DNA of 64,000 nucleotides from Mobula hypostoma (lineage: Eukaryota), in NCBI RefSeq assembly GCF_963921235.1, contig NC_086097.1, positions 115,632,001 to 115,696,000 on the forward strand, given 5' to 3'. The position numbers and the translations under genes are program-made. Of this stretch, positions 37,731-54,536 are shown one piece after another; within the stretch, counting starts at the first letter, position 1, and each line of letters starts with the position of its first letter. The notes below the pieces were generated by a model. The model was given only the letters and a program-made list of their open reading frames with translations. It did not search any database and was not told the DNA's origin.

Positions 37731-38238
37731 TACATAGTCCTCAACATAGTCTATGATGGCAGTGATATCTAGGTAGCTGAGTGTCTGAACGTGGAGAAGT
37801 CTATTGACTCAAAGCGATCATGTAAACACAAGAGATTCAACAGATGCTTTAAGTCCAGAGGGACTCAGCAGATCAGGCAGGATATCTGGAGAGGAACGAA
37901 CAGCTGATGTCTCTACTTCATCTACTTTTCCAGAAGGCTAAGGAGATTCAGAGTGCTTCTGATGATCATGGTAGCTTAACAGTTAATGAGACACTATTAC
38001 AGCTTGGGGAACCAAAGTTTGGAGTTCAACTCTGGTGCCATCTGTGAGCAGTTTGTAGGTCCTCCCTATGAATGTGTGGGTTTTCTCTGGATGCATCAGT
38101 TTCCTCCCACATTCCAAAGACATTTTGGTTAGTAGGTTCGTAAACGCCAGGAATTCTGCAGATGCTGGAAATTCAAGCAACACACATCAAAGTTGCTGGT
38201 GAACGCAGCAGGCCAGGCAGCATCTCTAGGAAGAGGTA

Positions 38239-38276
38239 CAGTCGACGTTTCAGGCCGGGACCCTTCATCAGGACTA
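38239..38276 (-). ncRNA. Minimal type I hammerhead ribozyme motif (PLE)
   Basis: tagtc-CTGATGA-agggtcccggcct-GAAA-c-GTC-gactg: conserved core, stems I and II, loopless stem III. Confidence 0.75.
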
Positions 38277-39248
38277 ACTGAAGGAAGAGCTAGTAAGAGA
38301 TTTGAAAGTGGGAGGGGGAGGGGGAGATCCAAAATGATAGGAGAAGACAGGAGGGGAGGGACGGAGCCAAGAGCTGGACAGTTGATTGGAAAAAAAGGAA
38401 TATGAGAGGATCATGGGACAGGAGGGCCAGGGAGAAGGAAAAGGGGGTGGGGGGGAAAACCCAGAAATGGGCAAGGGGTATAGTCAGAGGGACAGAGGGA
38501 GAAAAAGGAGAGAGAGAGAAAGAATGTGTGTATATAAATAAATAACGGATGGGGTACGAGGCAGAGGTGGGGTATTAGCGGAAGTTTGAGAAGTCAATGT
38601 TCATGCCATCAGGTTGGAGGCTATCCAGACGGAATATAAGGTGTTGTTCCTCCAACCTGTATACTGCGTCCGGTGCTCCAGATGTGGCCTTCTATATATT
38701 GGTGAGACCTGACGCAGACTGGGTGACCGTTTTGCTGAACACCTACGCTCTGTCCGCCAGAGAAAGCAGGATCTCCCAGTGGCCACACATTTTAATTCCA
38801 CATCCCATTCCCATTCTGATATGTCTATCCATGGCCTCCTCTACTGTAAAGATGAAGCCACACTCAGGTTGGAGGAACAACACCTTATATTCCGTCTGGG
38901 TAGCCTCCAACCTGACGGCATGAACATTGACTTCTCAAACTTCCGCTAATGCCTCACCTCCCCCTCGTACCCCATCTGTTATTTATTTATATACACACAT
39001 TCTTTCTCTCTCTCTCCTTTTTCTCCCTCTGTCCCTCTGACTATACCCCTTGCCCATCCTCTGGGTTTTTCCCCCCACCCCCTTTTCCTTCTCCCTGGGC
39101 CTCCTGTCCCATGATCTTCTCATATCCCTTTTTGACAATCACCTGTCCAGCTCTTTGCTCCATCCCTCCCCCTCCTGTCTTCTCCTATCATTTTGGATCT
39201 CCCCCTCCCCCTCCCACTTTCAAATCTCTTACTAGCTCTTCCTTCAGT

Positions 39249-39286
39249 TAGTCCTGACGAAGGGTCTCGGCCTGAAACGTCGACTG
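39249..39286 (+). ncRNA. Minimal type I hammerhead ribozyme motif (PLE)
   Basis: tagtc-CTGACGA-agggtctcggcct-GAAA-c-GTC-gactg; predicted cleavage after C39281. Confidence 0.75.
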
Positions 39287-40165
39287 TACCTCTTCCTAGA
39301 GGTGCTGTCTGGCCTGCTGCGTTCACCAGCAACTTTGATGTGTCTTGCTTGGTTAGTAGGTTAATTGGTTATTGTAAATTGTCCTGTGATTAGGCTAGGG
39401 TTAAATAAGTGGGTTGCTGGACAGGTCAGCTCATCGGGCCGGAGTGCCTGTTCCATGCTGTAGGTCTAAATGAATAATTTTTAAAATGATCAGATCAAAT
39501 TTGCAGAGGTTCCGTAACCAGTCAAGGATTGTGATGAATAACTAAGTAAGAATTCCCATCCAAACCAGTTGCACTCATGTCAACTTTTTCCTAGTTGTCA
39601 GAAATCTGATTCACAGGGTCGACAACAATGTTATTAGCTACCACTTATTCAGCAGTGACCTACTTGTTGCTCTTCAGTCTGAGCCACTCAGCTGCAGACC
39701 TCATTACAGTCTTGAGATTAGGGTAGCATTTAACTGAAAGTGATGCCAGAGAAATGTAGTAAAAGTGGAATTAATTAGTGTCATCCCTTAAGAAAGACGA
39801 GTGAAATGATTGTGTTTGTAGGAAATCAATTATATCAGTTTCAGGAGATTAAGGCAAAAGTTTCCCAGGACTGTGTCTCAGGACCAACTATTCTCAACTA
39901 TTTTATCAATGGTCTTCTTCCATTGATTATTGAACAGATTTTTAGTTCCTTTCAAAAAAGGCTGACCATCCATTTGTGCAATGGATACCACAGAAAAAGA
40001 CCTTGTAACACTTAGATCAGTACCTTTTGTCAAAAGGAAGTAAAAATTATTGTGAGATTATGCTACTAGATATTTATCAAAGAAGGAAGTGAATGCGTAT
40101 TAATCACAGAAAGTACAATAACAGTCATAACATACAAGAAACGGCTAAGAATCAACCTTTAAAAT

Positions 40166-47825: not shown

Positions 47826-48296
47826 CTTCTTTTCCTTCTTCTTCTTGTGCCCTTAACTCCTGGTGGAGTTGTTGGGGCGCCGTCATGACAAGCTTTGCAC
47901 CAGCTTTTTGGTGTGCTCATTATGTGGCGTGTCTTGGGCATCCGAAACCTGGCGGAGCCCATCCCTCTCCAGGTTTGACCACAGCCGATTTCCTCCAACT
48001 AGGTGACTCGCCTCGGTCGTGAACACGTGGCCATTATAGTTCATCTGAGGACCTTTCCGTCCCGGCCGGTGCCTTCAACATGGAAGTCTTTCGCCCAGTG
48101 GTGCCGTGTTAACACCACCCCCTCACGTGGTTTAGCCCACCAGCTGAAGTGGTTTACTGGGGTATGGCGCTTGCAGCCAACACGTGAGAGATTTAGGAGA
48201 TGGATGAGGACCAGTGATGCCCATCCACCCTGTCTGGTAGGAAGCAGCATGCCAGACATCAAAGGTACTACCTCTATTCAGAACCCCCCATACCCC
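47826..48296 (-). mobile_element. Non-autonomous retroposon (probably RTE-mobilised) with 5' HDV-like ribozyme and (AAG)n tail
   Basis: 11-bp TSD attttcctgtt (47815-47825 and 48297-48307); simple-repeat tail; no credible ORF. Confidence 0.75.
48122..48296 (-). ncRNA. Candidate HDV-like self-cleaving ribozyme
   Basis: P1 GGGGUAU/AUACCCC; P2 CUCACGUG/CACGUGAG; P3 GGC/GCC; L3 UGCAAGC; P4 CCAC/GUGG; J4/2 GCUAA; order matches the nested double pseudoknot. P1.1 is imperfect. Confidence 0.65.
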
Positions 48297-48699
48297 ATTT
48301 TCCTGTTATAGGCAATTAAATTACGCAAGTCATTCAGCAAGGTGCAATATTATCTTTAATGGGAATAGGTTATCCTGGAAAAATATCCAAATTAATATTG
48401 TCAGCCAATCATAGAACAGAGAACATGGAAAATTACAGGCCCTTAGGCCATAACATGCCAAACTTTAAAACTACTCTAAAATCAATCTAACCCTTCATTC
48501 ATGTGCCCATCTGTGTATCTTAAATAACCCCTAATGTATCTGCCTTGACCACCATCCCCGACAGCATGCTCCATGCACCCAACACTCTCTGTATAAAAAA
48601 AAAACTTACTTCTGGCATCCACCCCTATACTTTTGTCCAGGTACCTTAAAATTATGCCGCCTCATATTAGCCATTTAAACACAGAATAAGATTGTTTAA

Positions 48700-48937
48700 G
48701 CAACACACATCAAAGTTGCCGGTGAACGCAGCAGACCAGGCAGCATCTCTAGGAAGAGGTACAGTCAACATTTCAGGCCGAGACCCTTCGTCAGGACTAA
48801 CGAAGGGTCCTGACGAAGGGTCTCGGCCTGAAACATCGACTGTACCTCTTCCTAGAGATGCTGCCTGGCCTGCTGCGTTCACCAGCAACTTTGATGTGTG
48901 TTGCTTGAATTTCCAGCATCTGCAGAATTCCTGTTGT
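48700..48937. mobile_element. 238-bp palindromic Penelope pLTR insertion with a hammerhead motif on each strand
   Basis: 14-bp TSD ataagattgtttaa (48686-48699 and 48938-48951); ~100-bp inverted arms; motifs at 48762-48799 (minus) and 48805-48842 (plus). Confidence 0.9.
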
Positions 48938-51390: not shown

Positions 51391-52066
51391 GTTCTGAAGG
51401 ATGTTAGTAATAAATTTTGATTGCATTACGTGAACCAAATGCCCTTGTCAATATATAATTTATAAATCATTTGTTATTTATTCTTTCATTGTCATTGTTC
51501 ATTCTAGAACAAACATCAACTGTTTCTCCACTGTAATATCTCAAATGATCAGACATGAATCCTTTAATTATTCTGTACCTTTCAGAGAGAGACATACTTC
51601 ATTGCTGGTTCCCTGACTCATGAGATTGAGTTTTCCAACTCTGAAACATTAGGCAAATGGTAAAAGCTGACATGGCACCAGTGGGGTTAATCAAAAATTA
51701 AACACTGCTTATGAGTGATTTATCACTTCAATCTGCAACTGCAGCATGGCTACTCCCCTTCCTTAGTTTCACTATTTACTGCTAATAGTGATGTTAGGCT
51801 GCAATCAACAGATTGTTAGCCAGGAATTTACTGCTGTAATAATGGTGTTGTGATTGGTGCCGGTTGTCTAACACTGTGAAATTGACTGCAATTCTCTGAT
51901 AATATCTGGTAGTTTTGTGAACATCCCACAAAATGTCGCCTTATATCCACAATATCATGTTATATCACATTTACATAGAGTGCTGCTACAAGAAGGCAGC
52001 ATCCATCACCAAAGGCCTTCACCTTCTAGGCCATGCCCTCTCCTCACTACTACCATTGGACAGGAG

Positions 52067-52646
52067 GTTGTTGTTGTTGTTGTTGTTGTTGTTGGTCCAT
52101 CGTCGATGTCGATGAGGACCTTGACACCATTATTATGGTGTCGAGACTAGCGCGTGATTTGGATTTAAGTGAGGGAGAGTTGCACAGTGCCAGCCTCACT
52201 CTCTCTTCCCAATTCCCATCTGGATCCAGTGGCAAGACAGAGTCAAGATGGCTGGAGATGGGATTAGGTGCAGTGGATGACCAGGACATCTGCGGTGTCT
52301 TGTCCTGCTCTACACGTTCCACAACGCTTGCAGAGACTGCCTTCTTGACCGTTGGACCTTCCATTGGGCTCAACCACTCAATCCGCCGGAGTCTGTCTTC
52401 ACATGCTGGGATAGATAACTCCCTATCTCACCGAGGGTTTGAGACCCATCAGCTACCCTCAGCTGGTTTAGCCGACTTGTCAAAGCCGTTGCCCGGGGTA
52501 TGGCCACTGTCGCATGCAAACAGCTACGAGGAGCCACAGGTGAGAGATGAGTGCCAGGTGGGGAACAAAGGTGCACTAACCGCCTTGAAGAGGAAGCAAC
52601 ATGTTCTCCATCAGAGGTGCTACCCCTCCCTGACACTCCATACACA
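52067..52646 (-). mobile_element. Non-autonomous retroposon (probably RTE-mobilised) with 5' HDV-like ribozyme and (AAC)n tail
   Basis: Perfect 21-bp TSD actactaccattggacaggag (52046-52066 and 52647-52667); (GTT)9 on the plus strand. Confidence 0.8.
52458..52646 (-). ncRNA. Candidate HDV-like ribozyme with enlarged L3
   Basis: P2 CUCACCUG/CAG(c)UGAG; P3 GGC/GCC; L3 starts UCCUCG; AUACCCC-GG-GCA-A; P4 CGGC/GUCG; J4/2 GCUAA; 5' strand of P1 degenerate (UGUGUAU). Confidence 0.55.
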
Positions 52647-54536
52647 ACTACTACCATTGGACAGGAGAAGCTATAGATCCCATACCATCAGGTTCAAGAA
52701 CAGTTATCAGGCTACAGCCACCAGGCTCCTGATTCAGAGTGGATAACTTCACTCACCTCAACTCTGACTTGATTTCACAACCTACAGCTTATTTGACAAC
52801 TTACTTCTCAGCATTGTTTTATTTCCACAACTTGTCATCTTTGCACTTCGATTTTTTTTCAGTTTTTGTTTATGTATGGTTTTTCATAAATTCTGTTGCA
52901 TTTCTTTATTATCCTGTAAATGCCTGCAAGGAAATGAATCTGAAGGTAGTGTATGTTAACATTCTTTTTTATGCACTTTCGTAATAAATTTACTTTGACG
53001 TTGACTCCATCCATTCATATTTCAACATGGAAAGCAGGAAGCTGCTGTCAATGATCTGATGATCGTCCAGAGCTGTGCTGCCTTGCAGCCTGTCCCAGGG
53101 AAACCAAGGAAACAACTGAAATCCGGAAAAGCTGGGACATTCATGACGTAGTGCCCCCCTGTTATAGCAATTCAGGTAATGGAAATTCACCCCTACAGAA
53201 TTCACAGATAGCAAGCTAAAATTTGAGATTATCACAACCAAAGATCACTTTATAAAAATATTAGTACTGCATATGGATTGCATTGTGTCAGTGTGACCTC
53301 ATGGGTATGCAGTGTTCTTTGGATTGCTTACCCTTTATGTCTAATGGTTTGCCTTTGGACTAGCTCTGGGTTTTCACTTACTGTTGTCATGGGGATTGTT
53401 AAACTCTCTTTGTATATATCACATTTATTTAATTTATGTTAATTGAATTAGCATGTTATTTCCAATGTCTTGCATTGTAGTTGTTGTCTTTGGGGGTTAG
53501 TGCTTCATCTGGACACTGGGGCTATCTGATTGGTCCTGAATTCCTAACATGCTGCAGGGAGTATTTCAGTGGGGGTTTGCCAATCCCTGGTTGCTTTGTC
53601 GTTATGGATCCTTGTCTGGTGAAATTCTGACCAGGTACTTCTCTGTGTGTCATGAGTTATTTCATTTCTTCAAGATTCTGTATAGTTTGCCTGAGTTCTT
53701 GTTAGTTTTGCTGGTAATTTCTGTAATAACTCCTTTGTTTTGTTTGAATTGCCAAAGTCTCTGGGATTCCTGCACGACACTCGCTAGCGATCCTGACAGA
53801 GATACAGAATAGAAATGCAGAAATATGTGGAGGTATCATGGATATTAATACAACTTTACTTAAAAAATCTTTTTTATGGTGTCTCAGCTTCAAACTTCTT
53901 CATGCGTGTATTCCATCCTTTATTTCATATCCTGGTTAAATGCTTAAAAAAATCTGTTTTTTCTCTCCTGGCTTGATATTTATGAGAAATGCCTAGTTTG
54001 ATTGAATGCTCAACCACGCTAACGACATCTGTGTTGCCTGGTTTCCTTCCGTTAATGCTTGATGGCATCCACTGTTGGAAAAGAAAAGTCTGCACCCCAG
54101 GGATTGCTTTTTGCAAGCAGTTTTGAGCTCAACAATGAGCATTACTTCACCATAGTCTGGATATGTATGTTTAAAAGAGCCCATTCCACAATTTTCAATT
54201 TAGTAAGGTTAATAGAGATGCTATTTGTCACAAATTTATAAGAATGACATTCACTTGAAGATTTTACTGGTTTTACTTATATATCCTAAATTATGATGGT
54301 GGAAATAACAGAAACACAAGTAGTAAAATTCATACATCTTGCTCCATACCTATGCTTCTTGCACATATCTTACCCCTACAACTTTTGTTTAACAAAGGAA
54401 CAGAATTAGGCTATTTAGCCCATCAATTCTGCTCCGCCATTCAGTCATGGCTGATTTATTATCCCACTCAACCCCATTCCCCTGCCTTTTCCCCATAACC
54501 TCTGACACCCTGACTAATCACAAACCTATCAACATC

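Follow-up and report, generated by a model that had tools for sequence, protein, structure and literature searches.

Introduction

HDV-like ribozymes are known at the 5' ends of the non-LTR retrotransposons R2, R4, RTE, Ingi/L1Tc, LOA and R1 and of SIDE, NARTc and SIDER derivatives, and share with the element described here an exact 5' placement and persistence in internally deleted copies (PMC3774820, PMC6765202, PMC4035085). Their known role at this position is to cut the element RNA from a longer transcript (PMC6765202). Length variation of the R2 ribozymes is named for P1, P2, P4, J1/2 and J1/4, with L3 mentioned only for an altered spacing in one wasp element, and the available text of these papers yielded no helix within L3 of a non-LTR HDV-like ribozyme (PMC3774820, PMC6765202, PMC4035085). 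RTE elements headed by ribozymes, and two-part derivatives of these, are likewise known, and the two-part build devoid of an ORF has been described for RTE, Ingi, Vingi and R2 (PMC5786205). RTE-N2_Lch, RTESINE2 and WALLSI3 resemble the present element in combining a LINE 5' part with a short 3' part, in having no tRNA head and in starting with the LINE's own 5' end; that paper, however, gives no RNA structures, and the text covered describes no L3 hairpin, no partner strand and no pairing between the 5' and 3' parts (PMC5786205).

The large HDV-like ribozyme drz-Agam-2-1 of Anopheles shares with this element a double pseudoknot, a P1.2 domain in J1/2, short linkers and an extended P2, but its extra domain lies in J1/2, whereas the present element also carries an L3 hairpin whose partner is outside the ribozyme (PMC4908430). 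According to the available text of that study, it had not previously been proposed for the HDV-like family that peripheral domains make stabilising tertiary contacts (PMC4908430). Base pairing of L3 outside the core is also shared with the L3-L3 dimer of the CPEB3 ribozyme, in which pairing joins the 7-nt L3s of separate molecules and P1.1 opens (bioRxiv 10.1101/2022.09.22.508989); here, in contrast, a separate hairpin loop is predicted to pair within the molecule, leaving the P1.1 nucleotides free. The passages of the literature covered contained no L3 helix in HDV-like ribozymes, no loop-partner contact and no end-to-end pairing in RTE elements, and their supplements may show RTE ribozymes with a long L3.

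The element in the window and its family

The DNA analysed (the window) is a stretch of 64,000 nt from Mobula hypostoma (GCF_963921235.1, contig NC_086097.1, positions 115,632,001 to 115,696,000). It contains a copy of a two-part family, f2, which is read on the minus strand from 52646 to 52067 and is flanked by identical 21-bp repeats:

52067..52646, minus strand: f2 copy, two-part and non-autonomous, made of the 5' ~521 nt and the 3' ~50 nt of the element LINE-B
52647..52667, no strand: 21-bp TSD on the 5' side, identical to 52046..52066
52046..52066, no strand: 21-bp TSD on the 3' side, identical to 52647..52667
52067..52094, minus strand: (AAC)n tail, read from the letters

A search of the animal's own genome gave 5028 first-look candidates for the family, of which 40 were scored and 30 loci were fetched. 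TSDs of 8-21 nt surround 18 of these 30 copies. The other fetched copies are 92-93% identical to the window copy, which diverges by 7.2% from the f2 majority (1.1-5.6% for the other 29); its first 260 nt hold 22 differences from that majority, many of them CpG decay. P1 positions 2-3 have been lost and P2 contains one mismatch, and for these reasons the window copy is probably dead. The letters on which the sequence-only reading relied (the 21-bp TSD, the (AAC)n tail, P2, P3, the 28-nt L3, the 3' strand of P1, GG, P4 and GCUAAAC) all lie where they had been placed.

Comparison of f2 elements with two LINE proteins gave no match to an RT or endonuclease frame. In most f2 copies a frame of ~95 codons that begins with an ATG (52067-52364, minus strand) has no stop before it enters the AAC tail, and the search for its protein relatives was uninformative, with two unnamed, partly matching proteins among 359 candidates.

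Parent LINEs and related elements

The parent of f2 was found with a related element from another source as query, after two exclusion patterns aimed at it had returned f2 copies only. Nine LINE-B loci are 90-96% identical to f2 as far as about position 521, beyond which they enter an APE-RT coding region, and f2 positions 1-521 and 518-569 match both ends of the LINE-B loci L312, L313 and L316; by these matches, f2 is the first 521 nt joined to the last ~50 nt of the autonomous APE-RT LINE-B. The parent LINE is taken by us to be of RTE type, from its architecture and tail type. Its coding pieces are broken in all copies seen, and are mostly about 60-67% identical to those of a second element, LINE-A. 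The latter was met by chance from a PF20049 search, which found an RTE type with a tail resembling that of a further ribozyme-headed family in the window (the 48122 family). LINE-A is a young LINE whose copy L182 encodes a single frame of 1129 aa with PF03372 and PF00078 (endonuclease and RT), and its 5'UTR is 77% identical to f2 positions 232-505.

Homologous heads were also recovered in f3 (19 loci, 13-25% from their majority), in f4 (11 loci, 4-8%), both with tails differing from that of f2, in LINE-C (seven loci), and in three metagenome loci, namely L274 and L276, which represent a short element, and L275, which runs into an endonuclease frame. The f4 loci L230-L252 combine one ribozyme head with at least two unrelated 3' parts, so tails have been exchanged under the same head.

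The 5' ends of LINE-A (L194-L223, L182-L184, L282-L303) have mostly lost the front two thirds of the ribozyme. Among 30 LINE-A loci picked by the region after the ribozyme, 29 have no intact head, and only L211 keeps the whole ribozyme, with a 7-nt L3. Many of the fronts consist instead of GC-rich tandem units of ~30 nt with a TATA-like box, and others carry what we take to be a piece of methylmalonyl-CoA epimerase coding sequence; by its letters, this looks like a swap of ribozyme for promoter in a young LINE.

The 48122 family (window copy at 47840-48296, minus strand) has a head 78% identical to L211 over 200 nt and a (GAA)n tail like that of the PF20049-bearing LINEs, and is, judged by these matches, a head-tail chimera. 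The window also contains long, near-perfect inverted repeats of a common repeat, at 48695-48909 (103-nt arms 9 nt apart) and at 38138-39351 (nested arms of 183 and 221 nt).

Complementarity between the 5' and 3' parts

52120..52145, minus strand: junction of the two parts; the 5'UTR arm of 11 nt (52135-52145) is complementary to the 3'UTR arm (52120-52130)

In full LINEs the 5'UTR arm is complementary to a 3'UTR arm 3.5 kb away, and the letters of the arms differ among LINE-A, LINE-B, LINE-C and L274. The short elements join exactly at these complementary arms (L182, L313, L319 and L274 compared). Each of eight 3' segments pairs best with the 5' segment of its own lineage, and the reverse holds in six of the eight; in windows picked after the match was seen, seven of the eight pairings beat all but 0-6 of 500 shuffles, the exception being L323. 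A tRNA-like short element lies between the arms of the junction duplex in four copies (L091, L095, L098 and L112), with somewhat different sequences.

The 5' end and P1

52642..52648, minus strand: register of the P1 5' strand, GGGGUGU in the family, positions 2-3 missing here; predicted cut before position 1
52549..52639, minus strand: J1/2 domain, with the GGGGUA of the earlier reading inside it; 52629-52639 and 52549-52558 form the closing P1.2 of 10 bp
52495..52504, minus strand: P3 3' strand and P1 3' strand, from the letters and cross-family comparison

The 5' strand of P1 had been called degenerate, which describes the window copy but not the family: among the 30 copies, 14 start with GGGGUGU and five with GGGGUAU; in the remainder, between one and four of the initial letters are altered or missing. 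The P1 partner whose absence from the family consensus had been named beforehand as refuting the fold is present, GGGGUGU forming seven of seven pairs with ACACCCC. The regions upstream of the copies have nothing in common, and since copy starts cluster at this point, the 5' strand of P1 can be placed at the first seven bases of the element; f2 copies start, by alignment, at the predicted first base of P1, a G. A second set of 30 f2 copies, chosen by a 3' pattern only, gave a comparable picture: alignment begins at position 1 in 13 of them and no more than 7 nt from it in 18, the other 12 being truncated or rearranged at various points. An A at P1 position 6 (G-to-A) occurs in 12 of 59 f2 copies, almost none of which has a compensating change; of R2 ribozymes, a quarter are reported to have mismatches at the top of P1 (PMC3774820).

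P1 is absent from nested folding models, in which the 10-bp P1.2 closes J1/2 and is followed by P2 extended to about 11 bp. An internal GGGGUA (52621-52626) had been put forward as an alternative P1 strand; it lies within J1/2, and is not needed because the family begins with a full strand, GGGGUGU, that already pairs with the 3' strand of P1. The P1 5' strand occurs twice, nine bases apart, at 52633-52648 (minus strand), and L275 has a further duplication of its 5' end. A cut at the second GGGGUGU (position 10) was rejected, as no starts cluster there in the 30 copies and this strand also forms P1.2.

The predicted ribozyme core

52537..52544, minus strand: P2 5' strand, from letters and covariation
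52458..52465, minus strand: P2 3' strand, one mismatch in the window copy
52533..52535, minus strand: P3 5' strand, from letters and alignment
52526..52532, minus strand: canonical 7-nt head of L3 (U, CC of P1.1, G), from letters and comparison
52493..52494, minus strand: GG of P1.1, from letters and alignment
52473..52488, minus strand: P4, 6 bp with a 4-nt loop, from letters and covariation
52466..52472, minus strand: J4/2, predicted catalytic C at 52471, from letters and comparison

All five helices (P1, P2, P3, P1.1 and P4) are possible in the f2 majority. In an alignment of 15 long-L3 elements, hand-picked rows of less decayed copies, 91.7% of 469 cells are paired with the insert helices included, and double changes occur at one pair of P2, one of P3 (in a single row) and four of the six of P4. 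Across families, P2 pair 6 appears as C-G, G-C, U-A and A-U, all four Watson-Crick forms, and P1 pair 6 as G-C or A-U, a double change against the 48122 family. Aligned automatically, the short-L3 and long-L3 cores fell out of register, and that alignment was excluded. All lineages have an L3 head of UCCCCG, UCCAAG or UCCUCG, in which a U is followed by YC for P1.1 and, five bases on from that U, by a G; a U-G pair in L3 is described for HDV-like ribozymes (PMC3774820). J4/2 reads GCUAA, GCCAA or GCGAA according to family, the predicted catalytic C (C75 in PMC13635239) being followed by N-A-A. The rate here, 0.011 substitutions per site in 67 f2 copies, is uninformative on selection, as are all within-family rates, since copies decay neutrally.

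A search of the window against Rfam with E up to 1 returned no HDV family for either element, its three matches being at chance level and none of them at this element, and the core pattern had no match in viral or prokaryotic contigs. Owing to their mismatches, neither window copy was picked up by a strict descriptor scan. The cross-family covariation and the start of copies at the predicted first base of P1 support the proposal that the head is a structural variant of the HDV fold, a predicted ribozyme with a hairpin in L3.

Particulars of the earlier proposal are modified by the family. P4 had been contrasted as CGGC/GUCG here against CCAC/GUGG in the 48122 family; these letters stand in the two copies but are decayed forms, the majorities having CGGC/GCCG and CCGC/GCGG with one true double change. 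The L3 start UCCUCG is present in the window copy, yet is a minority form in f2, where UCCCCG prevails; P2, mismatched in the window copy, is perfect in the family. The element had also been offered as independent support for the fold at 48122-48296: that fold is supported, the 48122 majority having a perfect P1, a 7-nt L3 and an intact P1.1, but the two heads are homologous (80% identity over 49 nt), so the support is that of covariation and not of independent origin.

The hairpin in L3

52506..52524, minus strand: inserted L3 hairpin with a 6-bp stem, from cross-family alignment
52512..52518, minus strand: 7-nt loop of the insert (UGCAUGC), predicted to pair downstream

The whole L3 of the window copy spans 28 nt (52505-52532). 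The extra CUGU/ACAG hairpin noted there exists but is larger than proposed, with a 6-bp stem, GCUGUU/GACAGC, and a 7-nt loop. It is inserted after the seven canonical L3 bases, which stay in place. In the viral ribozyme the last base of L3 is flipped out and dispensable. f2 departs from the L3 of 7-8 nt typical of HDV-like ribozymes, and on that account the element is regarded as a variant predicted to work like the HDV-like family and not as an ordinary member. A subfamily combining this P1 with a short L3 was looked for and discarded, the shorter forms being 19 unrelated single-copy deletions, all different.

The long L3 is found in six lineages (f2/LINE-B, f3, f4, LINE-C, L274/L276 and L275) that are 68-84% alike, some of them autonomous and two from other sources. 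It measures 28 nt, with an insert of 21 nt, in f2, f3, LINE-C and L275, and 26 nt, with an insert of 19 nt, in f4 and L274, where the stem is short by one base on each side, both gaps having been put there by the aligner unprompted. In the 15 rows the stem is paired in 96.5% of cells, and none of its six pairs changes on both sides, so that covariation, for which the sequence-only reading had suggested a test, is absent from the stem and resides in the loop and a downstream partner that this reading had missed. The predicted pairing probability of the stem is 0.3-0.44, and the hairpin alone folds no better than shuffles (z -0.6 for the window copy, +0.1 to -1.5 for five relatives); its reality therefore rests on comparison and not on energy.

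Predicted pairing of the hairpin loop with a downstream strand

52400..52406, minus strand: partner strand (GCAUGUG), complementary to the L3 hairpin loop, from cross-family comparison

The loop of the insert is complementary to a strand 105 nt downstream, just before a conserved AAG. The loop and its partner read UGCAUGC with GCAUGUG in f2, f3 and LINE-B, A(G/A)CACGC or UACACGC with GCGUGUG in f4 and L274, UGCUAGC with GCUAGC in LINE-C, and UGCAUGC with GCGUGUG, through a wobble, in L275. Two pairs change together, one between U-A, C-G and A-U and the other between A-U and U-A. The C-G form is carried by seven of the nine f4 copies with a readable partner (11 loci), the other two having a U-G and a mismatch. 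Four of five LINE-C copies with a readable partner have the matching UA, three of these having been chosen by the loop alone, and two LINE-C copies are without the partner region. L311, an f3 copy caught by the LINE-C pattern, has a changed loop and an unchanged partner, as expected of decay after insertion.

In the 15 rows, from which broken loop-partner cases (L244, L281, L311 and L278) are among those left out, 93.1% of 101 cells are paired, against 7-61% in slid controls. Double-change cells number 12, against 3.4 +/- 1.8 in shuffles, none of which reach it in 500, the rows being related to one another. Only two of the seven pairs covary, a count reached by 348 of 500 shuffles, and the changes amount to about three independent events. 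Duplexes within a lineage have energies of -7.4 to -9.7 kcal/mol and swapped ones -2.6 to -3.3 kcal/mol, a loss of about 4-7, except that the f2 loop with the f4 partner retains -7.0 kcal/mol through a wobble. As f4 groups with f2 (84%) and L274 with L275, the C-G form would have arisen twice or moved as a block.

LINE-A gives separate support: its L3 has 7 nt, and the loop of f4 instead tops an unrelated stem of 6 bp that lies some 45 nt ahead of the same partner. The match of loop and partner is exact in 26 of 49 cases, some loci having been fetched twice; the stretch has a z of -2.1, and the loop-partner pairs are present in the folding model. The 48122 family has a hairpin directly behind P2 whose 7-nt loop is complementary to a strand about 75 nt further on, and this may be a pseudoknot of the same kind. 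The complementarity and its concordant changes make it likely that the L3 loop pairs with the strand 105 nt downstream. Because LINE-A has the same loop on another stem before the same partner, the insert is likely to be half of an extra 5'UTR pseudoknot that was grafted into the catalytic loop and has no part in catalysis.

Interpretation

The window element is probably best explained as a decayed, LINE-derived element with a predicted HDV-type ribozyme head, the L3 hairpin of which is likely to dock 105 nt downstream. Within this explanation, comparison of copies and families demonstrates the two-part origin, the TSDs, the start at P1 position 1 and the covariation of P1, P2, P4 and the loop-partner helix, while the course of events would be as follows. 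Transcription would occur by read-through, and the head would cut the element from the longer transcript at position 1, as expected from the known role of such ribozymes. The extra helix would form late, because transcription reaches the partner strand 51 nt beyond the end of the ribozyme strands, and would tie the cut, uncapped 5' end to the remaining 5'UTR as a third pseudoknot. Docking may thereby provide a scaffold for stability, translation or protein binding, and possibly also tune the rate. Acting in trans, the LINE protein would then copy the RNA of f2 by way of the 3' end common to f2 and the LINE.

That the hairpin is only a tolerated passenger on an active ribozyme, its match to the partner stemming from an old local duplication or from chance, is considered unlikely. 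In its favour, the loop core is palindromic in f2 and LINE-C, where complement and direct repeat look alike, independent changes are few, and consensus folding around the partner reaches only -3.4 kcal/mol with no uniform helix. Duplication cannot, however, explain f4, L274 and LINE-A, in which loop and partner are complementary but are not repeats; f4 is nearest to f2 and yet differs from it concordantly in both strands, and the insert has been kept in all six lineages. Docking could instead be a switch that regulates cleavage by keeping the ribozyme inactive (or active) until the 5'UTR further downstream has been made. The helix is indeed attached directly to the catalytic loop, peripheral domains alter the rates of HDV-like ribozymes about 1000-fold (PMC4908430), and in CPEB3 crystals L3 pairing is seen to open P1.1 (bioRxiv 10.1101/2022.09.22.508989). 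Against this, a fast ribozyme would already have cut by the time the partner arrives, 51 nt after the fold is complete, and LINE-A has the same helix outside the ribozyme, which argues for a role independent of catalysis. For these two reasons a scaffold acting after cleavage is favoured, and the switch is given a rather small probability.

It is quite improbable that the head no longer cleaves, with an internal promoter setting the start and the fold kept for another purpose. There is a precedent in Pr77 of L1Tc, which is both promoter and ribozyme (PMC3383444), and most LINE-A copies have replaced the ribozyme front with GC-rich repeats and a TATA-like box, or with other sequence, and have still spread; but across lineages that differ in age (~2%, 6% and 16% from their majority) all catalytic positions have persisted, as have P1.1 and the base that pairs in P1 with the first base.

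Significance

If the docking is real, this would be a natural HDV-like ribozyme with a helix in its catalytic loop and a covarying long-range contact, and L3 would join J1/2 and P4 as a third insertion site. Whole families would then escape searches that assume a short, fixed L3, the L3 site would be usable for engineered switches, and the conserved middle of RTE 5'UTRs would gain a testable handle on its function, the natural loop-partner variants being ready swap controls. A wider interpretation is advanced tentatively, as a possibility that falls somewhat short of an even chance: one RTE lineage may have grafted a conserved half-pseudoknot of its 5'UTR into L3 of an active HDV-like ribozyme, giving a natural triple pseudoknot, an L3 insertion site and a contact that couples the self-cut 5' end to downstream RNA. 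Together with the lineage-specific 5'/3'UTR duplex, this contact may define the RNA that the RTE protein copies, and would explain what the two-part derivatives must keep.
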